Source: a virus (lineage: Duplodnaviria > Caudoviricetes). From it: a DNA stretch of 64,000 bases. Below are positions 3,728-32,073 of this stretch, in pieces (position 1 is the first letter of the stretch; each line of letters begins with the position of its first letter). The position numbers and the translations under genes are program-made. The notes beneath the pieces are model-generated. The model was not told where the DNA came from and did not search any database. It saw nothing but the letters and a program-made list of their open reading frames with translations. The stretch lies in the IMG/VR virus record IMGVR_UViG_3300035491_000281. One strand, 5' to 3'.

Positions 3728-4141
3728 ATGAGCGACCTCAAGAGCCAAAAGATCGCCGAGAAGTTCGATATCAAGAACAAGCTGAGCATCGACGAGAAGA
3801 CCAACGCTATCGTCCCGTCGGACGACTTCTATGCCAGTACGCTGGAAGACGTCGGCCTGACGCTTGACCAGGTGAAGAAACTGCAGAAGCATGACGCCAG
3901 TCTGCTGGCGGCCACCACTCTGGTAGCTGGCGAGATGGTCGCCGAGCGTTTCAAGGCCGATCCCGAACTGAAGGAAGTCTCGTTCGAATACGGTGCCGGT
4001 CACAACTCCTACCACGGCTTCTTCCAGCGCGAAGGCACCACCCAGGTGCGCAACGTGGTGGAAGTCCACGGCATGGACAAGGGCGAGCTGGGCAAGGTAC
4101 ACAAGCTCGTTAAGGGCCTGTTCGAACAGATCAACTCCTGA
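3728..4141 (+). CDS. Hypothetical protein with C-terminal QINS motif
   Basis: RBS GAGAG before ATG 3728; ends KGLFEQINS*. Confidence 0.75.
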   Translation: MSDLKSQKIAEKFDIKNKLSIDEKTNAIVPSDDFYASTLEDVGLTLDQVKKLQKHDASLLAATTLVAGEMVAERFKADPELKEVSFEYGAGHNSYHGFFQREGTTQVRNVVEVHGMDKGELGKVHKLVKGLFEQINS

Positions 4142-4148
4142 TCCGCAC

Positions 4149-4193
4149 AGAGGACCCTCCGGGGTCCTCTACCCCTCAGAATCTTTCTTTTTT
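4149..4193 (+). terminator. Rho-independent terminator
   Basis: AGAGGACCC-TCCG-GGGTCCTCT with downstream T-rich tract. Confidence 0.65.
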
Positions 4194-4210
4194 CTCTCAG
4201 GGTGTCATCG

Positions 4211-4651
4211 ATGGATAACCTACAACTCGATATTACCTCCCAAGGGCGCACCGCTCTGGAGCGGGCGATTCAACTGATCTGGGACAACTGCCCGGGTGGC
4301 TTTGCCACCCACTGCGATATCGTCAAGCTCACGCACGAAGTTCACTACTACGGCGAGCCTACCAGTGGGCACTACACCACCACCAAAGTCACCACCGACG
4401 GTATCCCCACCATGATCCTGTATTGGCATGAAGCCAGTAAAGGGAAGGAGTTGCCGTATCCGTTTGATCGAGACCACAGTATCGACTTCATCTGGAACTG
4501 GTTGCAGGGCACGGAGTTTCCACCGGAGCCCGATATCGACGGCAGTTGCAGTAAGGGCTGGCGGGTGTTCAACGAAGCCTGGGGTCATGTTGCCGGAAAC
4601 CATTACGCCATTGTGGCGATTCAGCCCGAATGGGCCATGCACGGGAAATAG
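4211..4651 (+). CDS. Conserved phage hypothetical protein
   Basis: Trp-rich C-terminus (PEPDIDGSCSKGWRVFNEAWGH) of a family seen in other phages. Confidence 0.65.
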   Translation: MDNLQLDITSQGRTALERAIQLIWDNCPGGFATHCDIVKLTHEVHYYGEPTSGHYTTTKVTTDGIPTMILYWHEASKGKELPYPFDRDHSIDFIWNWLQGTEFPPEPDIDGSCSKGWRVFNEAWGHVAGNHYAIVAIQPEWAMHGK

Positions 4652-4656
4652 CACAG

Positions 4657-5304
4657 ATGTCCACTGACGTACGCGGTAAGTTTATTGTATTCGAAGGCGT
4701 TGACGGCGCCGGTAAAACCACCCAACGTCGCTTGGTGGCGGAGCGGTTGCGCGCTGATGGCAAGGAGGTGGTGGAAACCCGTGAACCGGGCGGGACACCG
4801 TTTGCTGAGGAGATCCGCACCCTCGCCCTGGCGGGTCGGGACGAGCCGATCAGTCCCACCACCGAACTGTTGTTGATGTTTGCGGCACGTGGGCAACATA
4901 TGCGGCAAGTGATCCGGCCGGCGCTGGAAGCAGGCAAGTGGGTGCTGTGTGATCGGTTCATCGAGTCGTCCTACGCCTATCAGGTTCGTGGCAAGGGTGC
5001 CGAGGAGGCGTTGTTCTACGATCTGGTGGTGCATGTGGTCGGGGCGACCATTCCCGATTTGACTCTGTTCCTGGATCTGCCGGACGAGATCGCCAACGAA
5101 CGGCGACTGGCGCGGACCGAACAGTTCGACCGTATGGACGCTGAAACAGCCGCCTTCCACGCCACGGTTCGACAAACCCTGCGGGAACTATCCACCATGC
5201 CGCGACATCGGGTGATCAATGGCAACCAACCCATTGACGCGGTGACGGCTGATATTCTTACTGCCCTGAACGAATGGGAGGCACCATGGATCTTAGAGAA
5301 GTAG
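4657..5304 (+). CDS. tmk: Thymidylate kinase
   Basis: FIVFEGVDGAGKTT P-loop, TREPGGT, ELLLMFAAR, VLCDRF, LFLDL. Confidence 0.97.
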   Translation: MSTDVRGKFIVFEGVDGAGKTTQRRLVAERLRADGKEVVETREPGGTPFAEEIRTLALAGRDEPISPTTELLLMFAARGQHMRQVIRPALEAGKWVLCDRFIESSYAYQVRGKGAEEALFYDLVVHVVGATIPDLTLFLDLPDEIANERRLARTEQFDRMDAETAAFHATVRQTLRELSTMPRHRVINGNQPIDAVTADILTALNEWEAPWILEK

Positions 5305-6056
5305 CTGTCGACGCCCTGAGTGGTGGGGCACTGGCTTACGCCGTGGCGGAGGCCTTGGATTGGAAAGACCCTAGTGGGTTGCTGTTAGAATTGGTACCCG
5401 CCGACGGCTGCCTGCAAAAACACCCGACGGTCATAGGTCACCGCCCGTTGGACGATGGCGGTTTCGAGACTCACGACTTTCTCCCGCACCGACAGTGGTC
5501 AATCGCCGGTTTCTACCAGGACCATTTTAACCTCGACGTTGGTGCCGAGTCGGAAACGACCTTTCATGCTACCTGGTACCGCGACGATTGTGCTCAGATA
5601 TGGACGGCAGTTGCTAACAGTCGCACAGAGGCCATCGCCCGGGTCGTGGTCAAAATACACCGCGGTGAGCGGGTATCGGTACCGGTGGCCATGCTGCCCG
5701 AGCCGTTGGACATCACGATCACGGAGACACCGCGGAGCGGCTGTCCAAGGTGTGGGATTTCGGGCATCCATGCCTGCCCCGGGCGGGTACTCCCGCCACC
5801 GACGCCGGAAGAAGAAGAACGGTTGACCCGTCTGCTGCAGGACACGCTCCGTAAACCCGACCTGGTGGTTTCGGAGGAAACCTACGCGGAGTTCGAAACC
5901 TTCCTGGCACAGGAGCTTCTCAAGTACGGCATGAACTACTCTCCGGAGATCCTGAAGTTAACGCGCGGCCTGACCGGCGACTACCGGGAGAATAAGCTAC
6001 TCCACCAATACTGGACTGGCTGGAACCTAGCAAGAGAGTACTCAGTCAAGCCATGA
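5286..6056 (+). CDS. Hypothetical protein with CxxC-CxG motif
   Basis: Overlaps tmk end; CPRCGISGIHACPG. Confidence 0.65.
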   Translation: MDLREVAVDALSGGALAYAVAEALDWKDPSGLLLELVPADGCLQKHPTVIGHRPLDDGGFETHDFLPHRQWSIAGFYQDHFNLDVGAESETTFHATWYRDDCAQIWTAVANSRTEAIARVVVKIHRGERVSVPVAMLPEPLDITITETPRSGCPRCGISGIHACPGRVLPPPTPEEEERLTRLLQDTLRKPDLVVSEETYAEFETFLAQELLKYGMNYSPEILKLTRGLTGDYRENKLLHQYWTGWNLAREYSVKP

Positions 6057-6313
6057 TATGCGGCGGGTGCAATGCCCTTCTTTATCGTGAACTTAAGCAC
6101 AGGTTTGCTATGCAGAACAATACCCTGGAATCGAACATTGGACGGCGCTTCAGCAAGGAGCGCCACGGGCAGAAAACGACGGTGGAGTTGGTGGACGTTC
6201 GTAAACGCAACGTGTTGTTGCGGGTGCCAGGTCGGGTGGACACCTTTGAGGTGACGCTCGCTGAGTTCAACAAGTTCTACCGGCTGGAGCCGAATCAATC
6301 CGCCGCAGCTTAA
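6053..6313 (+). CDS. Small hypothetical protein (true start may be 6110)
   Basis: ATGA overlap; followed by terminator hairpin. Confidence 0.55.
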   Translation: MICGGCNALLYRELKHRFAMQNNTLESNIGRRFSKERHGQKTTVELVDVRKRNVLLRVPGRVDTFEVTLAEFNKFYRLEPNQSAAA

Positions 6314-6322
6314 CCCTATAGT

Positions 6323-6351
6323 CGCCTCCCACCGCGGGAGGCGCTATGCCG
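6323..6351 (+). terminator. GC hairpin with TATGCCG tail
   Basis: CGCCTCCC/GGGAGGCG stem followed by CTATGCCG. Confidence 0.65.
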
Positions 6352-6377
6352 TGGGACGACTCGATCAAAACAGAAAC

Positions 6378-6386
6378 CTATATCAC
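6378..6386 (+). promoter_or_regulatory. Putative phage early promoter core (CTATATCAC)
   Basis: Exact copy also at 51762-51770; intergenic. Confidence 0.6.
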
Positions 6387-6432
6387 CTCTGTGGTTCTGA
6401 TGTAACAATTCTAATATCTTGGAGTTTCGTTC

Positions 6433-6996
6433 ATGTCCACTGAAGTTGATTTCAGTCAAGGATCGTCTCGTCTCCACAGTGCCTTGACTCATTTTTGCAC
6501 CGCAATGAACACACGGGTGGGGAACCCCCATCTGAAAACCGCCACCTTTGCTGAAATCGACACGGACCTGTCGCTCGACGCTAAGTCGTTAATCATGGGC
6601 TTTAGTCGTACCGGCCATTGGATCGGTCGGGCCCGCGATATGCGGTTTTACCAAAAACCCTGTGCCATCCATCATTGTCACTACCACAAAAGCCTCAACC
6701 CATCGCATCTGGCGCTTGTGGTCGATGTGCTAGTGCAATTGTTCATGGCGATCTACTGTCCCGAGATCGAGCAGTTCCCCCTGACTCGGGTCGAAATCGA
6801 ACCGCACGATCAGACACGCAAAACCCAGCTCACGGTTGACAGTGTGGGCTTGCATTCCGCACTCACCGAACTGTTTGCCCGGTTATACCGTGATGAGCTC
6901 ACCGTGGTGTCGCTTCATTTCGATGCTGGCGGCAACATCCGGGCAATCGGTCATAAGTTCGTCAACCCAATCACGCAACCCACCCCCACACTTTAA
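6433..6996 (+). CDS. Hypothetical protein
   Basis: RBS GGAG; first gene after promoter. Confidence 0.65.
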   Translation: MSTEVDFSQGSSRLHSALTHFCTAMNTRVGNPHLKTATFAEIDTDLSLDAKSLIMGFSRTGHWIGRARDMRFYQKPCAIHHCHYHKSLNPSHLALVVDVLVQLFMAIYCPEIEQFPLTRVEIEPHDQTRKTQLTVDSVGLHSALTELFARLYRDELTVVSLHFDAGGNIRAIGHKFVNPITQPTPTL

Positions 6997-7011
6997 CTTG
7001 AGGATACTCTC

Positions 7012-7701
7012 ATGCGCACTAACAAACACATCGCCGGTCTGGTATTCGGTCTGCTGCTGTCGCCCTTAGTCCAAGCCGGGGTGGCCTACGTTGAACCGCC
7101 GGTCTTTATGTCCCCGCAGTTGCCGGCCCAAGGTCAGTGTCTACCCTTTACCCACACCGACGTCACCTGTGATATCCCCGGCGTACCCTACCACGCTCGG
7201 GTGATACTGCAGGACCAACAGAGCGGCTATACCGAAGTCCAGGACGAGAAGACGGTGGTGCAATTCAACTGCCGTGACAGTATCTGTGTGGACGAATACG
7301 GCGGGCTGGTGGGCCAGGCTACCGGTGTTAAGCCCGGTGGTATTGTTCGCGGTTCGGTAACCCGCGGTTACTACGTGATGGTCGACGGCAGCGGGCGTTT
7401 GCCCAAAGGGGTCACCCATAAGCGCGGCACCGGGCCCTTGGCCACACAGTACCCCCCGTATCTGGTGGTCAACAACCCCCAAGCAAACGCAGTGCCAGTC
7501 TATGACTTGTACTGTGACCCCAACGACGACTGGTGCTACCTGACCCAGGACGGGCGCGATTACAAGCTCAGCCGGGAGGAACTGCCCCGCTATGTCAAGA
7601 TGGCCCCCAACACCGAGCGCTGCTGGCAGGAAGTCTGCGTCGATCAAAACCAGCAGATCATCGGCTTGAACCCCACCTACCACCTGTGGGCTGGAAAATA
7701 G
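7012..7701 (+). CDS. Secreted/periplasmic Cys-rich protein
   Basis: Signal peptide MRTNKHIAGLVFGLLLSPLVQA (VQA cleavage); RBS GAGGA. Confidence 0.7.
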   Translation: MRTNKHIAGLVFGLLLSPLVQAGVAYVEPPVFMSPQLPAQGQCLPFTHTDVTCDIPGVPYHARVILQDQQSGYTEVQDEKTVVQFNCRDSICVDEYGGLVGQATGVKPGGIVRGSVTRGYYVMVDGSGRLPKGVTHKRGTGPLATQYPPYLVVNNPQANAVPVYDLYCDPNDDWCYLTQDGRDYKLSREELPRYVKMAPNTERCWQEVCVDQNQQIIGLNPTYHLWAGK

Positions 7702-7718
7702 CAACTAAGGAGTGTGTT

Positions 7719-8309
7719 ATGTCTCACGTCTACACCGGAGTTGGCAGTCGGGAAACCCCGCCTGCCGTGATGACCCTGATGCGCCGCTTGGCTAATCACC
7801 TGCGCGAGCAGGGCTGGGTACTCCGCTCCGGTGGGGCGGAGGGAGCGGACGAAGCCTTCGAGCAAGGGGTCATGGACGACCCCGAGTACACCGAGAACGA
7901 TCTGGAGATCTACCTCCCCTGGCCGGGGTTTTGTGGACACCAGCCGTCGGTGTGTAACATCGTCGCGCCGCGCCTCCAGAACTGGTCACAAGCCGTAGCC
8001 AGGGCGAGTCTGATCCACCCAATCTGGAACGAGCTCAAGCGCAGCCATCAGTTGTTACATGGTCGCAACATCTATCAGGTCTATGGCTTGGATCTGGAAT
8101 CCCCGGCGGCGTATATCGTCTACTATGCTCGGGAGCGGGCTGACGGGGAGGTTGACGGGGGGACTCGGACGGCCGTGATGGCCGCACGACAAGCCGGGGT
8201 ACGGGAGTTGAATCTGTACCGCCCGGCAGTGCTGACCAAACTGACGGAACTACTCGATGCTGAGGAACCGGAGGTACTGGCCATGTGCTACGAAGCGCTG
8301 TTGGATTAA
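7719..8309 (+). CDS. DprA/Smf-like (SLOG superfamily) Rossmann-fold protein
   Basis: YTGVGSRETP, LRSGGAEGADEAFEQG, GGTRTAV motifs; RBS TAAGGAG. Confidence 0.75.
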   Translation: MSHVYTGVGSRETPPAVMTLMRRLANHLREQGWVLRSGGAEGADEAFEQGVMDDPEYTENDLEIYLPWPGFCGHQPSVCNIVAPRLQNWSQAVARASLIHPIWNELKRSHQLLHGRNIYQVYGLDLESPAAYIVYYARERADGEVDGGTRTAVMAARQAGVRELNLYRPAVLTKLTELLDAEEPEVLAMCYEALLD

Positions 8310-8335
8310 ACTACCGGTTTGTACCTATTGTATGC

Positions 8336-8542
8336 GAGACCTAGTCTTGAGTTCTTTCACAATTTAGCAACACCCCAAAGCGGGATAACCGCTCATTCCG
8401 GCCCCATGATCGGGCGCCACACGTACAGTCAGAAGACGCGCTGAATCCGAGCAGCCGATCGCCGCCAATGGATTCAGGCTCTTACTGGGTACCTCTGGTA
8501 ACACAGAAGCATCACCCTCCCTTTCGGGGAGGGCTTATGCTG
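8336..8542 (+). ncRNA. Candidate structured RNA A, ending in a terminator hairpin
   Basis: No long ORF; stems AGCGG/CCGCT, GCCC/GGGC, CTGAATCC/GGATTCAG, TTACTGG/CTGGTAA; possible GATCGG/CCGATC pseudoknot. Confidence 0.4.
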
Positions 8543-8562
8543 TTACTCTCTTTTTTCACTCG

Positions 8563-8952
8563 ATGGAAGCAGGCATGATGACCACTAAAGAGCAAGTCGA
8601 AAAAGACAACGAGTTGAACCTGGACGCCGCCGCAGCTGAGGCTATTCAGGAACATCTGCAGGAACTGCCCGCGGAGCCGCCGGCTGTCAACGCCACCTTC
8701 GTGGAGAAGGTGTTGCAGGTGCGAGAGCGGGTGGTGGAGGGGCTAGGCGGCGAAGCTGGTCCCGATGGGTTGCTCACCAAAGACACCGCCGAGCAAGCTA
8801 TCGATTCGGCCATCGGTGGGGTCTTAGGGATCGTCGAGAATGGCCCCTATACGCTGGTTGGGACCTTCATAGAGGAGGACGGGGATACCCCGGTCGATGT
8901 GGACATCACCGAAGGGTTGATGCGCGAGTTCTACTCCAAGATCAATAGCTGA
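8563..8952 (+). CDS. INS-family paralog 1 (acidic)
   Basis: AIGGVLGIVENG helix; ends GLMREFYSKINS*. Confidence 0.75.
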   Translation: MEAGMMTTKEQVEKDNELNLDAAAAEAIQEHLQELPAEPPAVNATFVEKVLQVRERVVEGLGGEAGPDGLLTKDTAEQAIDSAIGGVLGIVENGPYTLVGTFIEEDGDTPVDVDITEGLMREFYSKINS

Positions 8953-8963
8953 GGATAACGCTA

Positions 8964-9257
8964 ATGACAACTGAAGAACAAATGGTCCAGATGCGGACTA
9001 ATACTTTCGATAGATGCCGTAAAACCACGGTAGTAGACGTATACACGTTAGTCAGTGAAGCATTGGCCGAGCTCGATTCTGAACGCAGCTACAGCAAAGA
9101 AGAACTGGAGGGCGTCGCACACACGGCGGTCGGGGCGGTGCTGGATTATTTCGATAGCGGAGATAACGCCAGTAAGCTTGCGCTGACGACCCTGGACTGG
9201 CCGGACTACAAACCCACCCCCTTAATTGAATTGTACTACAGCCAAATCAACAGTTGA
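8964..9257 (+). CDS. INS-family paralog 2
   Basis: AVGAVLDYFD helix; ends PLIELYYSQINS*; RBS GAGGA. Confidence 0.75.
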   Translation: MTTEEQMVQMRTNTFDRCRKTTVVDVYTLVSEALAELDSERSYSKEELEGVAHTAVGAVLDYFDSGDNASKLALTTLDWPDYKPTPLIELYYSQINS

Positions 9258-9264
9258 GGCGAGC

Positions 9265-9582
9265 ATGGCTAAGAAAGTGCAGCCCAAAGCTAAAATCGAC
9301 CCGCTGTTGTTGAATGCGATTAAAGAGCGCTACGACCACGCGCGACTGAACGTCGTGGTGTCCCTGGTAGAACTACGCAATGCCGAGCTGGAGGGCATCG
9401 ATCCTTCCGCAACGTACCGTGGTCATGACCTGATCGACCGAGTCGACCGCACAGTGGGATCGATGCTGCAATACATCGACCAGAATAACCACACCGGAGT
9501 AATGAACTACGTGGTGAATACCGATATCCTCGGCGACCCGATCCCGTTGGTCATGCATTACTTCAATCAAATCAACAGCTAA
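9265..9582 (+). CDS. INS-family paralog 3
   Basis: TVGSMLQYID helix; ends PLVMHYFNQINS*; RBS GAGG. Confidence 0.75.
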   Translation: MAKKVQPKAKIDPLLLNAIKERYDHARLNVVVSLVELRNAELEGIDPSATYRGHDLIDRVDRTVGSMLQYIDQNNHTGVMNYVVNTDILGDPIPLVMHYFNQINS

Positions 9583-9650
9583 AAAAATACTGGCGGATTG
9601 ATACCATGCAAGAGATCTGCCAAAACTATAACCTGCAGTAAGGAATCCCG

Positions 9651-9974
9651 ATGCGCCAGGTGTTAGTGATCGGCGGTACCGGAGTGGGATTAGTTGCAGC
9701 GCTACTGGCCTGCCTGCCCCATACCGAGGTTGTCCGGGGGGACAGCCTGAGCCGCCGTGATACCGATTCTGTCGCACTGGAGGTAGCCACCGAACTGGAC
9801 GCCTACGACCGCCGGTATGTGGCTGCGTTACGAACGTACGAGCTCCCCAAGGTGCGGGACTGGTACGTTTACATTAACCCCTCCGGTGCCTACGGACCCA
9901 CCGGAACCGAGCTGACTTCACTCCAGATGCTGGGTGTGGAGACAATTGCGACCCAAGGCTGCGGGCCTTGTTAG
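9651..9974 (+). CDS. Hypothetical protein
   Basis: RBS TAAGGA; N-terminal VLVIGGTGVG. Confidence 0.55.
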   Translation: MRQVLVIGGTGVGLVAALLACLPHTEVVRGDSLSRRDTDSVALEVATELDAYDRRYVAALRTYELPKVRDWYVYINPSGAYGPTGTELTSLQMLGVETIATQGCGPC

Positions 9975-9999
9975 TCGCCACGGTTCCGGATGAGTTCAT

Positions 10000-10221
10000 G
10001 TGAAACTTCATCGGCTAGAAGGAATTTTGATTACTGGACTAGCGCGAATGCTCGGCAGCGCTTTAGCTTTGGCCTTAAAGGTTGGCGGTTGGACCTACGC
10101 GGTCCCGATCATTCACCAACGTGAGTGGACGGACCTAACACCCCAGCGCGAACCCCTACCCGCCAAAGTTAATCCGAGCCCTAACATACCCGAAGCACAG
10201 GGACATTGGACCCTGGTTTAG
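10000..10221 (+). CDS. Small hypothetical protein
   Basis: Colinear ORF with GTG start. Confidence 0.45.
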   Translation: MKLHRLEGILITGLARMLGSALALALKVGGWTYAVPIIHQREWTDLTPQREPLPAKVNPSPNIPEAQGHWTLV

Positions 10222-10265
10222 CTTAGGTGGCTCCCTGCGTCTGTGATGAACGTAAAGCCCGACGA

Positions 10266-10411
10266 GGTGGGTTCGATTCCCACCACTGTGGTAACTACCA
10301 CACCCCACCGGACTGCCGGTGGCGCATCACCCCAGAGATGCCTCTCCCGACCTTCGCCGTTACCTCACTATGACTGACGAGTTATAGCGTACGGCAAGAC
10401 CATCGGGAGGG
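10266..10411 (+). ncRNA. Candidate structured RNA B (hairpin array with canonical T-loop)
   Basis: GGTGGG-TTCGATT-CCCACC; GTGGT/ACCAC; CCACCGG/CCGGTGG; GCATC/GATGC; nested CTCTCCCGA/TCGGGAGGG, GCCGT/ACGGC, CTATGACT/AGTTATAG. Confidence 0.5.
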
Positions 10412-10484
10412 GGCTCATTTATGCCCACAGACCTATTCGGAGAAACGCCCTTTCTCTCAATACGTTTACCCTAAGGATACGACG

Positions 10485-10757
10485 ATGTTTTGGCTTTGGC
10501 TCTATATGGGGTTCCAACTGCTGGTCTGGATCAGCTACCTAACGGTTGGGGCATACGAAGACTACGTGACCATGAAGGGGAGTCTGATGGCCAGTCGGCG
10601 AGGGTTGAATTACAACGGTCGGTTCAACCCCTTCTGGTTCGTGTTCATTCTCACCGCGGTCCCGTTTATCAACCTCCTGATCTTATTAGCGGTCGTGGCC
10701 ACCATTCCCGGTCTGGTGCGTCTCCACCTACGCAAAGGTAAACCCCATTATGTTTAA
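10485..10757 (+). CDS. Membrane protein
   Basis: Two hydrophobic segments; RBS TAAGGA. Confidence 0.65.
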   Translation: MFWLWLYMGFQLLVWISYLTVGAYEDYVTMKGSLMASRRGLNYNGRFNPFWFVFILTAVPFINLLILLAVVATIPGLVRLHLRKGKPHYV

Positions 10758-11247
10758 TCTGTACTGGTACCTCCCCACCACCCTAATTACCGTTGGGGCG
10801 TTTCTGTTCTACCAGTGGTACCGCGATCACCTGCGGGATAAACATGGTGTCAAAGGGCTACACCCGCTGCGGCAAGACCACTTGAATTACCGCTCCCGAC
10901 TGTTCTGGGTCTGTTTGGGGTTTTGTCTGATTCCACTGACGAACATCGTCCTCCTGGTCATGTACCTGTTCGATCTCTGGCATGTCGCAGTCTACCACGG
11001 TAAGTTGTGGACAAAGGTTAAGCACTTTGCCGAACGACTGGAGAAGAAAGTCCACATGGACCTCTACCATAGCGACCAGTGCTGCCCGCGCTGTAAGACC
11101 TGGCAGAGCAATTGTGGCGGCTGGGCCAAAGTGGAAATGGACCAGCCAGAACCCCACCACGACATTCTCACCTGCGGCAAGTGTGGAGAGCGTTCGGTGT
11201 TTCTGGATTTCGGCATGGGCTTTAAGTACATCGGCCCGGCCGGATAA
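10750..11247 (+). CDS. Membrane protein with C-terminal Zn ribbon
   Basis: Two TM segments, then CPRC...CGKC. Confidence 0.65.
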   Translation: MFNLYWYLPTTLITVGAFLFYQWYRDHLRDKHGVKGLHPLRQDHLNYRSRLFWVCLGFCLIPLTNIVLLVMYLFDLWHVAVYHGKLWTKVKHFAERLEKKVHMDLYHSDQCCPRCKTWQSNCGGWAKVEMDQPEPHHDILTCGKCGERSVFLDFGMGFKYIGPAG

Positions 11248-11289
11248 GCAGAGACTTTTACCTGAGTCGTTCTACTATAGGGCGACTTT

Positions 11290-11804
11290 GAGGTAAAAGG
11301 GGAGTCATCGTGTCACCGTCAACGTGCCCCATCCACTGTGACGTGTGTTTCGGCGAACACTGGTGCGGTGACTCCACCTATTGCCTTATCTTATAGCCTG
11401 GCTGTAGTTCAATCGGTTAGAACACCATGTGGTCCATTACTCCCCCGCCAAGTTCGGGATTGAGGATGGGGTGCTGCTGTGGAGGCTCTCGGATCGAAGC
11501 CGAGCGGCCGGGCCCATATTACCAGCTCGCGGATGTTGCATTTTGCCTGAGCGCCCATCTAGCGCTCCACGGATGGCGGGTTTCCCTCGTCGCCCTACAA
11601 GCCATCATCGGGGTCCGATACCCCCGCATCCGCCCTTTTATCCAATGTAGTGGCTGTCCCTAACTTACGGGTTCGGAACGGAAAGAAGCTACTGCGTTGG
11701 ACCCCTTTTGCTCCCCAGCGTCCACCCCAACGTCCTGCACAGACAACCAGAACACTGGGGAGCAAATTCATTTACGACCCACCCTTCGGGGTGGGTTTAT
11801 GCCG
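11290..11804 (+). ncRNA. Candidate structured RNA cluster C around a tRNA-like domain
   Basis: GGAGTCATCG/CGGTGACTCC domain, GCGGATG/CATCCGC domain, 12-bp TTTGCTCCCCAG/CTGGGGAGCAAA stem crossed by CGTTGG/CCAACG, terminal hairpin. Confidence 0.5.
11396..11516 (+). tRNA. Non-canonical tRNA-like cloverleaf with a 48-nt anticodon loop
   Basis: Acceptor GCCTGGCTG/CGGCCGGGC then CCA; T8A9; D arm GTTC-AATCGGTTA-GAAC; anticodon stem CCATG/TGTGG; variable AGGCT; T arm CTCGG-ATCGAAG-CCGAG. Confidence 0.6.
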
Positions 11805-11827
11805 TTCCCAACCTAAGAGGTACGTCC

Positions 11828-12028
11828 ATGTCCACCCTACCCAAAAAGATGCCGATGATGTTTCTCCCCCGGCAATACCCAGTGGTGATGCATCCCGATC
11901 CTGCCATGCCGCTGGAGTTCACCTTGGGCTGCGCCTTGGCCAATGTCCTGGACGTGCAGGTCAGTCAGAAGAAGCTGAATGCGATCGTCGCCTTGCTGAA
12001 ACAACAAGGTATCGTACTAGCGCTGTAA
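11828..12028 (+). CDS. Small hypothetical protein
   Basis: RBS AAGAGG before ATG 11828; longer ORF calls extend into the structured region. Confidence 0.55.
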   Translation: MSTLPKKMPMMFLPRQYPVVMHPDPAMPLEFTLGCALANVLDVQVSQKKLNAIVALLKQQGIVLAL

Positions 12029-12045
12029 TGAACGCGATTTGACAT

Positions 12046-12054: not shown

Positions 12055-12111
12055 TCCGGTGAGGTATCCCACCTCACCCTTTCCATCCGCTAAGCAGAGG
12101 AATCGCTAAGC

Positions 12112-14786: not shown

Positions 14787-14787
14787 C

Positions 14788-23734: not shown

Positions 23735-23763
23735 CGCATAACCACAAGCTAAAGGAAACCCCC

Positions 23764-24318: not shown

Positions 24319-24356
24319 TTTAGCTATTTCATCACAAAATCCTAGGAGTTGTTCCC

Positions 24357-25259
24357 ATGAAGCAATACCTCGATCTACTACGCCACGTCCGCGACCACGG
24401 CACTTACAAGAGTGACCGTACAGGCACGGGCACCTACAGCGTGTTTGGGTACCAGATGCGTTTCGATCTGGCCGAAGGCTTCCCGCTGGTGACCACCAAG
24501 AAGTGCCACCTCAAATCCATCATCCATGAACTGCTGTGGTTCCTGCAGGGGGACACCAACATCGGCTATCTGAAAGAGCACGGGGTGAAGATTTGGGATG
24601 ACTGGGCTGATGAGAACGGCGATCTCGGTCCGGTCTACGGTTACCAATGGCGCAGCTGGCCGTCCCCCAATAAACCGCAGAAACTCGCTGCTTCAGAACG
24701 CATCGCGATATGGAACCGGGCCGCCCGTAAGGCCTACCCGATGGATGCTGCGACTCATGCGAAAATGGAACAGCTGGTCGGTGCGCCGGTGACTCAAACC
24801 AAGCCGTACGTCTGGCATGATCTCATCGCACAGGTTCGGCTTAACCTTGGCTATCATGAAGCGGTTAAGGAACTGTTTGCATTCTTCGATATACCCGAAT
24901 ACGCGCAAGACCCGGATGGGTCAATCGATCAGATTGCGAACGTCATCCATACCCTCAAGACCAACCCGGACAGTCGGCGGATCATCGTCAGCGCCTGGAA
25001 CCCCGCACTGGTGGATGAGATGGCTCTGCCGCCGTGTCATGCGTTGTTTCAGTTCTACAGTGCGCCACTGTCCCTCAAAGAACGCTTGGGGTTAGTTACC
25101 GACGAGCAGCGTGACAAGTTTGTCACGCATGTAATCGAGGTACGCGGCCATGTCGGTGAGATGGCAGAGCTAACACCCGAGGTCGAAGCAGCTCATCACA
25201 AATTCCTCGACGATCTCGGGGTCTGTGGTCGTAAACTCTCCTGTCAGTTGTACCAGCGT
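24357..25259 (+). CDS. thyA: Thymidylate synthase, exon 1 (two insertions)
   Basis: [52 protein letters not shown]. Confidence 0.97.
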
Positions 25260-25539
25260 TAAGTAGTAGCGCCTTCTGGGAGTGATCCCAGTAGCAAACC
25301 TCCCTAAACGGGGAAACTCTCGAAAGAGACAATCCCGTGCTAAATGGCGAAAGCCTAAAAGCCTAACGACTAGCGAAAGCACCGACGGACGCAAAACGGT
25401 GAACGAGTAGCGTAGGGACCAGGTGGTCTCGAAATGGGAGGGGTCTCTAGGATGGAGACCGTGATATAGTCTCGTCTGCATGGTGACATGCAGCATTTGT
25501 ATAATGGGTCCCGTTTAACGATCGGGATTTAAGATAACG
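25260..25539 (+). mobile_element. Group I self-splicing intron, 280 nt, no homing endonuclease
   Basis: Exon ends in U, intron ends in G; P1 GCGU/GCGC; P AAACGGGGAA, Q AATCCCGTGC, R AACGACTAG, S GATATAGTC; splicing restores [14 protein letters not shown] in frame. Confidence 0.92.
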
Positions 25540-25836
25540 TCAGCGGACATCTTCTTGGGCGTGCCGTTTAACATCGCGTCTTACGCGTTGCTGACCATGA
25601 TGGTGGCACAAGTGACCAACATGGTGCCGGGCGAATTCATCTGGACGGGGGGCGATACTCATCTGTACTCAAACCACGTAGAGCAAGCGGATCTGCAACT
25701 GACCCGTGAGCCGCTACCGCTACCAACCATGAAACTCAACCACAAGGTGAAAGACCTGTTTGCGTTCAAATTCGAGGACTTCACCTTGGAAGGTTACGAG
25801 TCCCACCCACATATCAGCGCCCCGGTGGCGGTGTAA
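25540..25836 (+). CDS. thyA: Thymidylate synthase, exon 2
   Basis: [34 protein letters not shown]. Confidence 0.97.
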
Positions 25837-25953
25837 CCATAACAACGCCACTCGCGAGACTGTAGGTAATAGGTCACCGAGTTCAACCCGATGTAAACGA
25901 CGACATAAACGGAGAGCAGGGATTCCTGCTCTCTCTGTCCTATGGAGGGATTT

Positions 25954-26271
25954 ATGGGTAACGAACATACCTATAATTACAAGACTCTTTTCATCTGGCG
26001 TCTACACCTTATCACGTTGGAAGCTCAAGGTACCAAGCGTGGCGATCTAACCGCAGTCGTTGTGATCGCTTCTACCGAAGAACAGGCGCGCATGTTGTCC
26101 GCCCAATGTCTGTCGGACGATACGCGGACCGATTCTCCTCGCTCGGAGTACCTTGATCCGGAAAGAACCCGTTGCACTAAACTGGGGTTTGCTATCAATG
26201 GAATTGGAGAAGGAGTTGTCGTAGCCGACTATGACTACGATTACGACTCCATCGAATATCCTTGGATATAA
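25954..26271 (+). CDS. Hypothetical protein
   Basis: RBS GGAGG. Confidence 0.6.
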   Translation: MGNEHTYNYKTLFIWRLHLITLEAQGTKRGDLTAVVVIASTEEQARMLSAQCLSDDTRTDSPRSEYLDPERTRCTKLGFAINGIGEGVVVADYDYDYDSIEYPWI

Positions 26272-26380
26272 TAGAACGCGACTATTTCGAGATCGATCGG
26301 ACAGTCAGTCGCGTGATTTGTAGATATTGATTGATGCGACTTGGCGCTGACAAAGTCCTTCGATCAGATAAGGAGTACAT

Positions 26381-26845
26381 ATGAGCACATATGCCATCAC
26401 GTTACTCAAATACGCTGATAGCGAAATACTCGATGACCATTGCGCGGAGGACGAACTGGGGCTAGGTCAGTCATACGACGCATTTGCCGTTCTTGCTGGA
26501 ATCAAAAACTACCATTCGATTGTTCCACTGTTCGAACCGTTTCGTGAACTTCCCCCAGAACTCGCTAAAGTCAAACACCTCTTCGGTTACGTGGGCGCTT
26601 TCTTCCAGTATTACTACCGAACCTGGTTCACGCTCGAAGAATTCGACCAATTGGATCTCGATCGGCCGCTTGAGTTCTTGCCGGATAAGGCAAAGAATGA
26701 TTTCGACTTGCCCGATCACCGCAGGGACGATGTCCAGTCGGGTGACACCTATCGCAGTTTCATCGAACGGAAAACAACGATCTTCACGTGGATCGAAAAG
26801 CTGAAGCAAGAAAATGCTAAGGTAGTCATACTCGGATTCGATTAA
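26381..26845 (+). CDS. Conserved phage hypothetical protein
   Basis: RBS TAAGGAG; FAVLAGIKN, TWFTLEEF, VILGFD pattern. Confidence 0.65.
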   Translation: MSTYAITLLKYADSEILDDHCAEDELGLGQSYDAFAVLAGIKNYHSIVPLFEPFRELPPELAKVKHLFGYVGAFFQYYYRTWFTLEEFDQLDLDRPLEFLPDKAKNDFDLPDHRRDDVQSGDTYRSFIERKTTIFTWIEKLKQENAKVVILGFD

Positions 26846-26856
26846 AGGGCGTGGAC

Positions 26857-27081
26857 ATGACCGACAATGAAGTGCTGAATAAGGTACTTACCAATTATTT
26901 TCGCTCGACGCCCAGCAGGGTAGGGTCGGCACAAGACCGACGCTGGATCGTTAAACAAGCGATCGAGATAACGGAAGCGGGTGGAACGGTTGCCGTGGTA
27001 CATGTGGCGAACGAAGGCTTTCGCTTAGAGATGACATTACCAAAGCGAAAGCGTATACTCAAGAAGAAGGAAACAGCATGA
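26857..27081 (+). CDS. Small hypothetical protein
   Basis: Colinear ORF. Confidence 0.5.
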   Translation: MTDNEVLNKVLTNYFRSTPSRVGSAQDRRWIVKQAIEITEAGGTVAVVHVANEGFRLEMTLPKRKRILKKKETA

Positions 27082-27123
27082 TGCACCCATCGAAAACCAA
27101 ACTGTACTTGGAGTAATGAAATT

Positions 27124-27390
27124 ATGTTAGGGATATTCGCAGTCGCGTTGAGCTGGATTTTGGGGGCGCTATATCTACATTGGTTCCGTAGAAACCAATA
27201 CTCCAAGAACCCCATCAGCTGGAATCAGCGCGGGGTGGGGTTCATCGCCTTCAGCGACCGGCAGTACTGGTGGTTAATGACGTTCTGGCCGGTCGCCATT
27301 GTGGGGGCACTGGCCCTTATCCTACTCTGGTGGGTATGTGCAGCCATCGAGTGGCTTGCAGAGCAAGTAAAAGGCCTAACTGGACGTTAA
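27124..27390 (+). CDS. Membrane protein
   Basis: Two Trp-rich TM segments; RBS GGAG. Confidence 0.6.
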   Translation: MLGIFAVALSWILGALYLHWFRRNQYSKNPISWNQRGVGFIAFSDRQYWWLMTFWPVAIVGALALILLWWVCAAIEWLAEQVKGLTGR

Positions 27391-27399
27391 GGGGTTACC

Positions 27400-28161
27400 G
27401 TGGAAACGACTAACATCGATCAGCTGGGCCTGCGTTTTGAAAAGCTTGCTCATGCTAAAACCGCCAGTCAGGTGATGCTGACGGAGATTACCGGTCACGG
27501 CGATTTCTGGCTGTTGACCTTCAAAGGAAAGGGTAAACGCGAATCCCGGGAAGGTTGGGTCTATTATAGTGAAGTGCCCGATACCCTGGTGATGGAGTTT
27601 GGCTATGCCCCGGACGGTCTTACCGCCGTTGGCTCGACTGAGCGCTTTATCTACACTCTGTGCAAGCATGGTGGTTACTATGCCAATTACTCCACGCAGT
27701 GGCGGCGTTCCGGTATACGACCTGAGTGGTATTCGATCTTCGAAACGCTATTGGAAAACTTCGAACGGATGTGTGGCGTTACCGCACTGCCGGTAACCAA
27801 ACCCCATCACGCCGAACCCTCGTTATCGGTGAAACGGTTTTCTGCAGATACACCGGTTGAAAAACACCAATATACGGTTCCCAACCTAGCACGCTGGGAA
27901 GGCATACAGCCTAACGAGATCGGTATTCGCAACCGCCGTGCCCGAAACTATCGCAAAATGGCGCTGGCCCAATTTGAGTTGGAACTCAGAAAGACCTTGG
28001 ATCACGCCGCCGACCGTCGCCAACGTGAGGATGGGGAACCCCCCATGGCGTATTGGCAAGCAAGTGCTGGTGTACTGGGTGTATCTCCCGACTGGTTGGT
28101 ATTCGGGCAGGTGCAGACCGAAGTCGATGCCGAAGCTGAGAAAACCCCGTTGTGGGTATAA
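27400..28161 (+). CDS. Hypothetical protein with XRE-HTH-like C-terminal remnant
   Basis: AGVLGVSPDWLVFG resembles the end of HTH_3 domains. Confidence 0.55.
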   Translation: METTNIDQLGLRFEKLAHAKTASQVMLTEITGHGDFWLLTFKGKGKRESREGWVYYSEVPDTLVMEFGYAPDGLTAVGSTERFIYTLCKHGGYYANYSTQWRRSGIRPEWYSIFETLLENFERMCGVTALPVTKPHHAEPSLSVKRFSADTPVEKHQYTVPNLARWEGIQPNEIGIRNRRARNYRKMALAQFELELRKTLDHAADRRQREDGEPPMAYWQASAGVLGVSPDWLVFGQVQTEVDAEAEKTPLWV

Positions 28162-28173
28162 GCTGGAGGTTGT

Positions 28174-28302
28174 ATGTATCCTGATCTATCGCATCTGTTG
28201 TTTATACTCAGTCCGCTCGGACTGAGTCTTTTTGCCGGCGGCGTCGTCATCGGGGTGGTAGTCACCAGCTGGCTGGTTAAGGATAAGAAACATGAGTGTT
28301 GA
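28174..28302 (+). CDS. Single-TM peptide (42 aa, below ORF-track cutoff)
   Basis: RBS GGAGG; MYPDLSHLLFILSPLGLSLFAGGVVIGVVV. Confidence 0.5.
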   Translation: MYPDLSHLLFILSPLGLSLFAGGVVIGVVVTSWLVKDKKHEC

Positions 28303-28981
28303 CTCTCCCGTGCTGAAGGCACTCCTGGACGCTGGCCTGCAGGAGATAACCCCCGAGACCGACGGGAAGGACCTGCGTGAGCTGATGTTCTACGCCATGT
28401 ACCTACCTGGGGTGGAGAAAGTCTGGATTAGCTTCAGTCGCCGAACTGCGTTCTTCGTAAAGCGCGTGCAGACCTGGTGGGTGGGCAAAGGTCCCGCCGA
28501 ACCCTGGGCACACAACGTCAACCGCCTGCTGGCGGGCTCGCGCACCATGCGTGTGTTTTACGATGAGCGTGAGCTACTCCATTACGACTTGCAAGAGCAA
28601 CTCCACAAACTTAATGCCTTGATCGATCGCAAACCCCTTGATCGGGTTGGGCCGATTACGATCTGGTTGGTCGAGCACCCAGCCAGTGGTCACTACCGTC
28701 TGATCAGTAAACGCCCGGACCTTAGTGCGGGTTATGTCCTCTCCGAGTTCCTGGCCCAGTCCAAGCTGCAAGCCGAACTCACCAACCCACCGCAGAACTC
28801 CAAATACCGCGACTGGTGTCTGGCCTTTCGGGCCGAGCTAAACGACCCTCAGTGTTTCAAGGTTAAGAAGTTGGCCCGTTTTGACGGCGACAAAACGACT
28901 GAAGCAGTCAAATACATGCGGTCTTATGCCGCGGCGCTGGGGACCGACAAAGCCCTGAATCTCATCTACCGTGTGCGTTAA
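28292..28981 (+). CDS. Hypothetical protein
   Basis: 229-aa colinear ORF. Confidence 0.6.
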   Translation: MSVDSPVLKALLDAGLQEITPETDGKDLRELMFYAMYLPGVEKVWISFSRRTAFFVKRVQTWWVGKGPAEPWAHNVNRLLAGSRTMRVFYDERELLHYDLQEQLHKLNALIDRKPLDRVGPITIWLVEHPASGHYRLISKRPDLSAGYVLSEFLAQSKLQAELTNPPQNSKYRDWCLAFRAELNDPQCFKVKKLARFDGDKTTEAVKYMRSYAAALGTDKALNLIYRVR

Positions 28982-29043
28982 CGACAAGAACCAGCTGACC
29001 TGCCAAGAGAACATGGGAGTAATGGCATGAACGATAAATACGC

Positions 29044-29749
29044 ATGAGCAACAAATTTCAGCGGTACCCCGCTGGAAGGCCCCGTCCGGGAACTGCTGGT
29101 TGATCTGGACCGGGAGGGTATCACCGACTGTCTGGACTTTCTCTTGGCTAACAACCGCAGTGGGGGGTTTCCCTACCACAAAGGGGTGGAGTTCCATAGC
29201 GAAGTGGAACGGGTCACCCGTAACATCCGTAGTACACAATACCCCTATACCGAGGACCCTAGTAGCGTGGATCAGCGCGTGCTGCGCGATGCCGATCTGC
29301 TGTATGTGGTGATGTTGGGTGAACCGGACCAGGTATTGGAAGGGCTTCGCGCTGAGGCATCGGTGACGAACAGCGTAGAGGTGAGCTACCAGACAGCGCA
29401 TGAAAAGCAGCTGAAATTCATGTCGCAGGTGAAGCTCTTCACCGAACACGGCCGGCTCTGGTACCAGGAACAACAAACCGAGTTCATCCGTCGATTCAAT
29501 GCGGCCTACTTCGAAAAAACAGCAGTAGTTGACAACTCGGCACCTGGCACTGATGCTGAACAGATTGGTGTTGAAACCGCACTGATCGAACTGCAGAAGG
29601 AGCAGCGACTGACGGTGGAGGAACTACGGGCACTCTACACCCTTTACGACCACGGGGCGATCACCCACGTCCGTACGCAACCTGCAGAACAAGGCACAGG
29701 CGTCAGCCGCGTATTGCAGACGGCGAACCTGTCGATCACGGTGCTCTAA
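29044..29749 (+). pseudogene. Probable degraded HD-domain phosphohydrolase
   Basis: ATG 29044 frame (MSNKFQRYP) stops after 19 codons; downstream frame has PYH directly followed by IRSTQYPY and VLRDADL, with no HD motif between. Confidence 0.5.
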
Positions 29750-29804
29750 GGAATACTCCTTGCCGTTGAGCTATGTAGACAAACCCTAACCTTCTGGAGT
29801 CCGT

Positions 29805-30044
29805 ATGACCACCCTCAACGTCGCGACCAACCCGCGGGAAGTGCGCTTCTCCGTAAGCCAGGAAATCCGTTCGGAGTTGTACCGACTGTGGAATGCGGGC
29901 TGTATCAACAACACCCAACAGGCCATGCTGAACGCGCTGGTCGAACACCGGGAAGGCCATGTCTTAACGGTCCACTACGATGAGACCGGTACGTTCCTAC
30001 ACGCCGTGTTGGAAACCTGCAGCCTACGACTGACCACCCTCTAA
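29805..30044 (+). CDS. Small hypothetical protein
   Basis: RBS GGAG. Confidence 0.6.
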   Translation: MTTLNVATNPREVRFSVSQEIRSELYRLWNAGCINNTQQAMLNALVEHREGHVLTVHYDETGTFLHAVLETCSLRLTTL

Positions 30045-30054
30045 GGAACCCACC

Positions 30055-30447
30055 ATGGCACGTGTGATCTGTGGGTTTCCCGGAGTCGGGAAATCGGAAG
30101 CGGTAAAGTACAACCCCAACCTGGTGGACCTCGACGTACCCGGCAAAACCGATTACGTCGAAACCATTCGGGAACTGCTGGCCGACGGAAAGGATGTCCT
30201 ACTGCCCACCTGGCAGTCGTTGCGCGACGAGCTGGTGGCTGCAGGCATTCATTTCACCTTGGTCTACCCCCAGCGGGATTTGAAGGCCAACTACATTGCC
30301 CGGTACATCCGCCGCGGCAGTCCGGATAAGCTGGTTGAGACGCTCTACCAGAAATGGGACGAGTTTATCACCAGCTGCGAGACCCAGGTAGGTTGTGAGC
30401 ACATTGTGCTACGGCGCAGTGGCGACTACCTGGTTGATGTGCTGTAA
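30055..30447 (+). CDS. Small P-loop NTPase / nucleotide-kinase-like protein
   Basis: ICGFPGVGKS Walker A; YIARYIRRGS. Confidence 0.7.
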   Translation: MARVICGFPGVGKSEAVKYNPNLVDLDVPGKTDYVETIRELLADGKDVLLPTWQSLRDELVAAGIHFTLVYPQRDLKANYIARYIRRGSPDKLVETLYQKWDEFITSCETQVGCEHIVLRRSGDYLVDVL

Positions 30448-30486
30448 CTATAAAGAAAATCCATTCGTTCTATAGACGAGGTACAC

Positions 30487-30852
30487 ATGACTGAAGTAAC
30501 CGAAACCCAGGTCCTGGAAGTGCAGTACAACGAGGAACAGCTGAAGATCATTGGCGACTGCCGTCGGGTGTTCGTCGATCAGATCAAGACCATCGAGCAC
30601 GAAGTAACGCAGGCCGAGGTCGACGAGGAACAGTCGGTCGACGATGCCATCGCCGAGCGGGTACAGGAAGCCATGGCCAGCGTGATCGACCTGCTCGATA
30701 GTGACTACATCCTGGTCCCTAAGGAAGAAGACCTGATGGTACTGCCAGCCTCAACCGAAGTCTTCGTACAAACAAACGCTACCACACCATACATGGTCGG
30801 ATTGGATATCTCCGGCGGGTTGGCGAAGATGTACGCTGAAATCAACAGCTAA
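30487..30852 (+). CDS. INS-family paralog 4 (acidic)
   Basis: AMASVIDLLDSD helix; ends GGLAKMYAEINS*. Confidence 0.75.
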   Translation: MTEVTETQVLEVQYNEEQLKIIGDCRRVFVDQIKTIEHEVTQAEVDEEQSVDDAIAERVQEAMASVIDLLDSDYILVPKEEDLMVLPASTEVFVQTNATTPYMVGLDISGGLAKMYAEINS

Positions 30853-30924
30853 GCCTAAGGAGGCGACCTACGGGTCGCCTCTTTGCCGTCTTTATTTTTT
30901 GTTCAACTCAACGGGGTTTGAAAT

Positions 30925-30933
30925 CTACATCAT
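30925..30933 (+). promoter_or_regulatory. Putative early promoter variant (CTACATCAT, upstream GTTTG)
   Basis: Same position after a terminator as the other copies. Confidence 0.45.
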
Positions 30934-31028
30934 CGACCAGACCCTATTCGGAGTAAGCCCAATGGTTATTGTACTGGATGCACACGGACGGGTGGTTCTA
31001 CGACCGACACCCGTCAAGGACCCACCCC

Positions 31029-31496
31029 ATGCTTGAACACGTCACTCCCGAGCGAGACTACCTCTCCCCCAGCGGACTGCGGTTCAAGGTCCTCTACCTG
31101 GCCAAACACGGCCAGGACTGTTCCCACCCCATGGTGGTCTACACCAACTTGGAACGCACGCACGACCGTCCTGTCGGGGAAATCTGGGTGGTCTCCGAAC
31201 GCATCTTTCGCGAGACCTTCCGCGAAGCCCCGCCCCTAACCCCACAGACAGTCTGGTGTTTGTCGGTCAAGCACACCACCGCCCGGTACGGTGCCAGTCG
31301 GGTCGACAACTACTACTGGCATGGTGACCTGACCCACGATGACCGCCCGGAAATGGCCAAGCGCTTCTGTGTGACTGACGGCGACTACGTCGATGCCCGC
31401 CGCGACGGTGAAGCCAGGTGGCACAGTGGCGGGGAATGCACCCTGCGGGAACTAACTCTGGAGGAGTATCATGAAATTCGAAAAGGCGCTGGCTAA
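31029..31496 (+). CDS. DUF1653-like domain protein
   Basis: FKVLYLAKH...MVVYTNL...IWVVSERIFRETF. Confidence 0.6.
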   Translation: MLEHVTPERDYLSPSGLRFKVLYLAKHGQDCSHPMVVYTNLERTHDRPVGEIWVVSERIFRETFREAPPLTPQTVWCLSVKHTTARYGASRVDNYYWHGDLTHDDRPEMAKRFCVTDGDYVDARRDGEARWHSGGECTLRELTLEEYHEIRKGAG

Positions 31497-32073
31497 GGTC
31501 AAGCCGGGGCAATACTTCAAACAGATCGATGCTGATTGGTCCGAGCACTCGGTTCAGTTTGGTATGGATGAGGAAGGGAACCTGTTCTGGACAGCGGGTA
31601 AGACCAGTGGTGGTCGGCTGCGGGTAGAGGACCACTACCGCGACAATTTTGATTACGAGATCTACGGTGCCTGGGGCGACTCTGAGCCGGTGGGGGTGAA
31701 ACTGACCAGCGGTCCAGTGTTTGCCATAAGCCACCCAGCCGCGCCTGTGGCGCCGGTAACTGAAACCCCCACCATACGCCCCGAGCAAGTCGCGGCGCTA
31801 CAGCAAGGGGCGCCAGAGACCCTCCAGCGGCACTTTATTGCCGACATCAGCAACGCGGTGGATCTGGCACTGGAAGCTGGTATCTACGAAGGTCAGGTGG
31901 TGGACAACGTCCAGACACTGGCCAACCAGGTGATCCGCAGCGTGATGACCGTGGTCGAAGGTAGTGATACGGCACCCGGCTGGCATGTAATCAAAGACGG
32001 TGGTGAGGTATACTTAAAAGCCGTGAGTGTTTCGCCGGGCATCACGGCCATGTTTGACAAGATCAATTCCTGA
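31471..32073 (+). CDS. INS-family paralog 5 with weakly Tad2-like N-terminal domain
   Basis: MKFEKALAKVKPGQ start; VIRSVMTVVEG helix; ends PGITAMFDKINS*. Confidence 0.7.
   Translation: MKFEKALAKVKPGQYFKQIDADWSEHSVQFGMDEEGNLFWTAGKTSGGRLRVEDHYRDNFDYEIYGAWGDSEPVGVKLTSGPVFAISHPAAPVAPVTETPTIRPEQVAALQQGAPETLQRHFIADISNAVDLALEAGIYEGQVVDNVQTLANQVIRSVMTVVEGSDTAPGWHVIKDGGEVYLKAVSVSPGITAMFDKINS

Follow-up and report, generated by a model that had tools for sequence, protein, structure and literature searches.

The window analysed here is a stretch of 64,000 nucleotides from the genome of a Caudoviricetes virus (IMG/VR record IMGVR_UViG_3300035491_000281), where six genes dispersed along the + strand between positions 3,728 and 32,073 encode proteins ending in isoleucine, asparagine and serine (INS). 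The genome, one contig of 231,290 bp, is that of a chimallivirus, i.e., a nucleus-forming, phiKZ-like phage, encoding ChmA (629 aa, E 6e-117 to 201phi2-1 gp105) and a homologue of 201phi2-1 gp125/phiKZ gp69, named PicA in the literature (E 2e-143). An earlier note on this DNA, made from the sequence alone, had regarded the six endings as one C-terminal tag, and all six frames exist and terminate I-N-S-stop, having the INS codons at 4130-4138, 8941-8949, 9246-9254, 9571-9579, 30841-30849 and 32062-32070. The positions by which it had designated the proteins are gene starts, and 3728 is the likely true ATG of the first gene, instead of the upstream ATG 3701, because the database orthologues begin MS(D/N)LKSQK. 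Regarding the codons, they vary for asparagine (AAC/AAT), serine (AGC/AGT/TCC) and the stop (TGA/TAA), indicating that the identity lies at the peptide level, as had been proposed; the isoleucine codon is ATC in 6/6 genes.

When the whole genome was surveyed in six frames, INS was found to end exactly six open reading frames (ORFs), all of them inside the window, compared to 0.06-0.12 expected by chance, and neither a seventh ORF ending in INS nor any other ORF ending in [IVL]N[ST] was found. INS is the commonest C-terminal tripeptide among the 1,293 ORFs of at least 50 aa. The chance probability of six such ends is approximately 1e-9 (Poisson), assuming that the six are independent, and about 0.002-0.007 when the coincidence is counted as two independent families only. 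A wider motif, [FWYLM][FWY]xx[IV][NS][NSTG], is present at 5 of 498 C-termini (ORFs of at least 100 aa), relative to an expectation of 0.04 derived from the internal frequency of the motif.

The gp186-family protein and the small paralogs

The first gene (P0001/P0008; 3728..4141, + strand) is single-copy and encodes a protein of 137 aa from ATG 3728, in an ORF open from 3701, which ends in ...KGLFEQINS, the seven-residue tail LFEQINS being located at 4118-4138. It belongs to the gp186 family, as the full-length phrog_16459 aligns with it (residues 10-146 on profile positions 2-136 of 136, E 5.9e-25). Its homologues include PhiPA3 gp222 and 201phi2-1 gp283, whose annotations note a similarity to phiKZ gp186; this phiKZ protein is recovered by the family profile at E 2e-13. 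Homologues were obtained by tblastn from 20 records, 19 of which are Pseudomonas jumbo-phage records. The phiKZ gp186 is an early transcript, and its antisense knock-down strongly lowers the plaque counts (bioRxiv 10.1101/2024.07.31.605949). The family is listed in PHROGs with an unknown-function annotation, and no Pfam match was found for any of the six INS proteins.

The AlphaFold2 (AF2) model of P0001, from 3728, has a mean predicted local distance difference test (pLDDT) of 87.8 and consists of a long helix, a three-strand sheet and a C-terminal helix (120-135). When this model was searched against BFVD with Foldseek, 15 matches at E<=1e-3 were obtained, with proteins of 134-228 aa and a template modelling (TM) score of up to 0.86 for an orthologue, the named matches being from jumbo phages, such as Noxifer, Psa21, KTN4, Phabio, Eowyn and PhiEaH1. 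The Foldseek search of the PDB with the same model gave no match, and the wide VIA-align search returned weak pilin-like helix-plus-sheet matches (Z<=5.9) over residues 44-115, with the tail helix outside.

The other five genes encode small proteins, all on the + strand. P0002 (8563..8952, 129 aa) ends in ...EGLMREFYSKINS and is closest to 201phi2-1 gp369 and PhiPA3 gp306, and it is followed by P0003 (8964..9257, 97 aa), ending in ...PLIELYYSQINS, and P0004 (9265..9582, 105 aa from ATG 9265, in an ORF open from TTG 9226), ending in ...PLVMHYFNQINS. P0005 (30487..30852, 121 aa) ends in ...GGLAKMYAEINS, and P0006 (31471..32073, 200 aa), whose paralog domain comprises residues 100-200, ends in ...PGITAMFDKINS. 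Judged by their sequences, P0002-P0006 are diverged paralogs of a fast-evolving superfamily of phiKZ-like small proteins of approximately 80-200 aa. Their mutual identity is 17-25%, and phmmer links the P0003-P0004 pair only (E 4e-5). The earlier note had proposed that these five proteins share an upstream helix, and their homology indeed extends beyond the tag: a leave-one-out hidden Markov model (HMM) deprived of the last 12 residues ranks the left-out member first in three cases (P0003, E 0.015; P0004; and P0005, E 0.004), second in one and third in one (P0006), among 1,721 ORFs. Similarly, the tail-less core HMM ranks the other small proteins with the tail higher than nearly all of the 1,721 decoy ORFs.

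The tail-less phmmer comparison groups P0002 with 201phi2-1 gp369/gp376, PhiPA3 gp306 and their counterparts in Phabio, HPP-Temi, Viktualia and Noxifer. Matches to known profiles are weak, namely P0002 with phrog_11061 (E 3.5e-4) and P0005, end to end, with phrog_18616 (E 4.7e-4), the latter representing a five-gene tandem array of phage Noxifer with tails INN/INS/IND/VNN. The superfamily, which is phiKZ gp258-like, includes phrog_18616/11061, PhiPA3 gp306/308/311/312, 201phi2-1 gp369/376/377/378 and a phiKZ ORF at 245822-246196, and its PHROG members are all annotated as of unknown function. There are five copies here, three of them adjacent, five in tandem in Noxifer and 4-7 in PhiPA3, 201phi2-1, Phabio, Temi and Psa21. 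P0002-P0006 also have the layout of the superfamily: two N-terminal helices, a helix with ..GVL..LDG, a few strands and a short C-terminal tail helix. Models of the paralog domain are poor (pLDDT 47.5 for AF2 from five sequences and 0.49 in the ESM Atlas), both being unusable. An identity as a Tctex-type dynein light chain was considered for this domain and dropped, the best PDB profile match having E 0.035 and no Pfam support.

Close relatives of the paralogs are scarce. The blastn/tblastn searches of phage records, the IMG/VR scans and the word-indexed searches returned the proteins themselves only, and HMMER on 1.84 billion representatives gave back the five paralogs, along with two spurious rows and a single true relative, P0027 (...AYFESINT), in whose 20-kb context no other tail was found. 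The N-terminal extra part of P0006, with approximately 100 aa (window 31471-31770, +), has no family match; a similar extension is present in PhiPA3 gp308 (180 aa) and in one 218-aa protein of Phabio. Outside the window, on the - strand of the same contig (G000:C1:23980-24837), an ORF of 285 aa ending in ...EDFYQSVKE scores just under the five paralogs in the tail-less HMMs (E 0.3-3), and it may be a divergent member of the paralog family with an altered, extended tail.

A shared C-terminal motif and its lineage dialects

As the earlier note had suspected, the protein starting at 3728 is unrelated to the others outside the tail. The hhalign comparison of the gp186 family with the paralogs covers the last 11-12 columns only, with P 0.03 and 0.01, and nothing is aligned when the tails are cut (P 0.89). 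In addition, gp186 members are never among the proteins recruited by the tail-less paralog HMM. A remote homology of all six proteins was not found: hhalign aligns the tail only, with small as well as enlarged alignments, and the Foldseek matches in BFVD are gp186 orthologues only.

It is well supported that INS is the local form of a conserved end, hydrophobic-[FWY]-[D/E/N]-x-[I/V]-[N/S]-[S/N/T/G]-COOH, as seen by the position counts from both families, with Y/L at -7, F/W/Y at -6, D/E/N at -5, I/V at -3, N/S at -2 and S/N/T/G at -1. The hydrophobic spacing and the AF2 model further indicate that the motif ends an amphipathic helix, a well-supported prediction being that it forms the last two turns of a short one. 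Both families end in this motif in nine phiKZ-like phages apart from the present one, and throughout the phiKZ-like Pseudomonas phages examined; it was seen in PhiPA3, 201phi2-1, Viktualia, Noxifer, Phabio, Psa21, HPP-Temi and phiKZ. The tails of PhiPA3 are LFDEISN (gp222), YWNLISS (gp306), LFNDISN (gp308) and FWNAVSN (gp312), and those of 201phi2-1 are LFEDVSN (gp283), YWNQVSN (gp369), YFEEVSN (gp376) and LWEAVSN (gp378). Noxifer has LFDDINN in its gp186 homologue and LYEGINN, DFSRINS, LFEDIND and IYDDVNN in the paralogs, and phiKZ gp186 ends in FFEDVNS.

The idea that the tag is a widely portable module is weakened, since the tail is borne by two families only, with no third one in the censuses of this genome, of its closest complete relative G001 (IMGVR_UViG_3300031933_000215, 231,818 bp) and of about half of 201phi2-1. 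In the half-genome census of 201phi2-1 (773 ORFs), the motif is found on gp283, gp369, gp376, gp377 and gp378, and in the complete genome of G001 it is found on the gp186 homologue alone (GLFDDINS), a protein 58% identical to P0001. No paralog family was found in EL, OBP, SPN3US and SA002, whose gp186-like proteins, where detectable, lack the tail. Concerning the free C-terminus, which had been called invariant, this is correct within the present genome; however, close orthologues of P0001 end in IDG, IDS, IHT, INN and VNS. The IDG end is that of P0009 (GCA_030390125.1, SRR25906338) and the IHT end that of P0012 (JGI 3300027365). More constant is the length, as the stop falls two residues past I/V in 20 of 21 gp186-family sequences, even where those residues differ. 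Of the tail copies in general, nearly all stop there, apart from Noxifer INEDD, 201phi2-1 gp372 (YWDDV) and the phiKZ paralogs VNRG and VNGK, one residue longer.

Each phage lineage has its own form of the last three residues, present in both families. In this phage, it is INS in the gp186-family protein and in all five paralogs; in Psa21, INS in gp186 and INT, INS, VNS and INT in the paralogs; and in Noxifer, INN in gp186 and INN, INS, IND and VNN in the paralogs. In HPP-Temi, VNT of gp186 is accompanied by VNS, VNS, VNT, VNS and VNT, while PhiPA3 has ISN with ISS, ISN, VSG and VSN; 201phi2-1 has VSN with VSN, VSN, VNG and VSN; and Viktualia has the dialect VSN. When the gp186 and paralog tails were paired, with the paralog tails preselected by the end pattern [IVT][NS][NSTGD], the true pairing gave the top score of all 5,040 permutations (p 4e-4), and it was still the best of 720 without this phage. 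Several paralog subfamilies are orthologous across phages, according to tail-less clustering, so the dialect pattern needs parallel changes in several genes rather than recent duplication. Moreover, the dialect does not correspond to the host, as the P. aeruginosa phages PhiPA3, Temi and phiKZ have ISN, VNT and VNS, respectively.

The sharing of the tail by the gp186 family and the paralogs appears to be new, both families themselves being already in PHROGs. In agreement with the earlier note, which knew of no description of the tag, no account of the tail or of its presence in two families was found in the literature searched, which did not cover all journals.

Possible docking, packing, degradation or sorting

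The explanation given the most weight, at somewhat less than even confidence, is that the tail serves both families as a shared docking end, meant for a putative phage-encoded partner. In this mechanism, the hydrophobic face (-10/-11, -7, -6 and -3), together with the short polar end, would engage one site on a single phage-encoded partner, and the small accessory proteins would use the same end as the gp186-family protein, sharing or competing for that site. Docking is suggested because the triplets drift between lineages yet match across both families within a lineage, because the dialect tracks the phage lineage and not the host species, and because the chain nearly always stops two residues past I/V. 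In addition, the gp186 homologue of G001 retains the tail without any paralog, suggesting that the tail is primarily that of gp186 and that the accessory proteins appear to match it. In phage T4, gp43, gp33 and gp55 share clamp-binding ends, which are likewise short C-terminal hydrophobic/aromatic motifs on unrelated proteins, and in T7, gp2.5 and gp4 share acidic-aromatic ends, following the same principle with a motif that differs from this one; the resemblance to T4 is also of principle only, namely that such an end could let unrelated proteins of one phage fit into one partner site. Chimalliviruses have been reported without an identifiable sliding clamp (bioRxiv 10.64898/2026.10.01.755736). 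A bolder version, in which a lineage-coded address, Phi-[FWY]-[DE]-x-[IV]-[NS]-x-COOH, would plug the early, plaque-limiting gp186 protein and a changing accessory set into one phage-encoded hub, is rather doubtful. If true, this phage family would have its first linear signal for docking or sorting, and its accessory proteins would be evolving by mimicking the gp186 tail; to our knowledge, chimalliviruses are so far without any known linear signal for targeting or docking.

Several points weigh against docking. The covariation comes from about seven related lineages, the statistics ignore phylogeny, and the paralog tails that entered the permutation test were preselected, as mentioned above. 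Phabio is mixed, with ISS in gp186 relative to VNS, VNT, IST and ISN in the paralogs, and the phiKZ paralogs exceed the usual length. Only two families bear the tail, so its portability is barely shown, and this restriction is also expected if the tail is purely structural, i.e., if a C-terminal amphipathic helix packs on its own alpha/beta core and is capped by a polar N/S/G/T end, with no common partner, the likeness between the families being due to convergence or to an old shared structural element. Asparagine, serine, glycine and threonine are favoured helix C-cap residues, which could explain the polar end without a receptor. According to AF2, the tail of the gp186-family protein ends a confidently placed helix (120-135, pLDDT 80-88) following the core of a helix and a three-strand sheet, and this tail may therefore pack on its own core. 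Furthermore, 14 orthologues have L131 and F132 without exception but differ in the last two residues (NS, DG, DS, HT and NN), the hydrophobic spacing of -10, -7, -6 and -3 is that of a packing helix, and the cross-family similarity of the tails alone is statistically modest (the hhalign P of 0.01-0.03). However, self-packing leaves unexplained that one triplet is present on up to six proteins of two families per genome and other triplets elsewhere, and it accounts neither for the parallel change in orthologous paralog subfamilies nor for the fixed two-residue length after I/V; on balance, it is a serious rival, though a less likely one than docking. Less probable still is mutual assembly, where the tail helices would pack together in homo- or hetero-oligomers, gp186 possibly being the hub, and the tails would co-evolve with each other instead of with a third protein. 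This is consistent with a dialect common to the tail-bearing proteins within each genome and with the poor prediction of the paralog domain as a monomer (pLDDT 47-49), as expected of proteins that fold on assembly, but the gp186 homologue of G001 keeps GLFDDINS without paralogs, so paralog contact cannot maintain the gp186 tail.

The earlier note had mentioned an SspB in the window as a possible receptor, and a homologue is indeed encoded at 35767-36168 (+), having 133 aa and a Pfam SspB score of 28.8 bits (cut-off 27) and belonging to phrog_8945. It ends in ...RPKLTVVK, an XB-like sequence resembling the ClpX-binding end of E. coli SspB. All the tail-bearing phages tested have an SspB homologue (phiKZ, PhiPA3, 201phi2-1, Viktualia, Noxifer, Phabio, Psa21, Temi and G001), and none was found in the tail-less OBP, SPN3US and SA002. 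A ClpX adaptor may thus be common among phiKZ-like phages. In a timed-degradation mechanism, this adaptor would bind the tail and pass early proteins to the host ClpXP. The genuine SspB domain with its XB-like end and the co-occurrence of the homologues with the tail are in favour of such a degron, and the Y-x-x-x-N spacing of the tail might be taken as the reverse of N3...Y7 in the ssrA tag. Nevertheless, the tails, ...[YL][FWY][DE]x[IV][NS][SNT], are unlike ssrA (AANDENYALAA), and they do not have the non-polar end (LAA) of ClpX degrons. A weak SspB-like match exists in EL, where no tail family is present, and co-occurrence is expected of any gene restricted to this phage clade. A degradation tag is considered very improbable. 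A sorting signal, directing the proteins to the phage nucleus, the chimallin shell, the early infection vesicle or capsids, is given hardly any weight, slightly below even that of the degron. The phage is a true chimallivirus, having ChmA and the PicA homologue, and the motif is strictly C-terminal, like the classic C-terminal sorting signals PTS1 and KDEL. Against it, no known nuclear enzyme carries the tail in the three censuses, and capsid loading, which had been among the destinations first proposed, finds no support in 201phi2-1, where the mass-spectrometry flag for virion proteins is absent from gp283, gp369 and gp376-378 but present on their neighbours gp277 and gp280. The proposed nuclear import is likewise disfavoured by a 2025 review, according to which the recognition of cargo relies on the surface residues of folded proteins and uses no signal sequence at a terminus (PMC12908238).

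Mimicry of the chimallin tail was also considered and rejected, because ChmA ends in ...VTGSGRLY here and in ...QTGPSSFY in 201phi2-1, both unrelated to the INS tail; the chimallin CTS2 comprises residues 622-631 (PMC9365700).

Returning to docking, a shared seven-residue end on the gp186-family and accessory proteins would provide an experimental handle, and the peptide could be used as a bait for the partner. The motif occurs in the tractable phages phiKZ, PhiPA3 and 201phi2-1, for which antisense and CRISPRi tools exist, and involves a plaque-relevant gene. Chimalliviruses are the main model for virus-built compartments inside a bacterium, and few of their small early proteins have been assigned a role. 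With such an end, dozens of "hypothetical" small proteins per genome could be classed together according to one interaction. If the tail is a helix cap only, the finding shrinks to the description of two protein families.

Genomic setting of the genes

A thymidylate kinase gene (window ORF 4630-5304) adjoins P0001. The gp186-family gene is likewise located beside the thymidylate kinase gene and downstream of gp182/gp184 homologues in PhiPA3, 201phi2-1, Noxifer, L004, L007 and L009. The genes P0002, P0003 and P0004 are separated by gaps of 11 and 7 nt, and due to this close spacing, they look like a single transcription unit, starting past a terminator. Directly upstream of P0002 there is a G+C-rich hairpin (8515-8533, +; CCCTCCC TTTCG GGGAGGG) followed by a T-rich stretch, which is terminator-like. 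No 7- or 8-mer common to the upstream regions of the six genes was found. CTATAAA precedes P0001 and P0005, and its genome-wide count on that strand is 7, close to the number estimated from base composition.

Homologues of P0002-P0006 were not detected in the complete relative G001, which also lacks most of the neighbours of the paralogs (ORFs at 6433, 9651, 10750, 28292, 30055, 32454 and 33658), indicating that the paralogs occupy variable, accessory stretches (window 8563-9582 and 28292-34233). One of these neighbours, at 10750-11247 (+), approximately 1.2 kb downstream of P0002-P0004, is an ORF of 165 aa with an HNH endonuclease match (phrog_8828, E 2.8e-12). Regarding the SspB homologues, longer ones with a similar end, ..PKLTVIKGGKK, are present in phiKZ (229320-229637 region) and HPP-Temi. 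Finally, a few kb upstream of the gp186 homologue of L007, a metagenome relative of this phage (JGI 3300027365), a gene at 5839-6243 has a Pfam match to the Acb2/Tad1-hairpin family of anti-CBASS/anti-Thoeris sponges.

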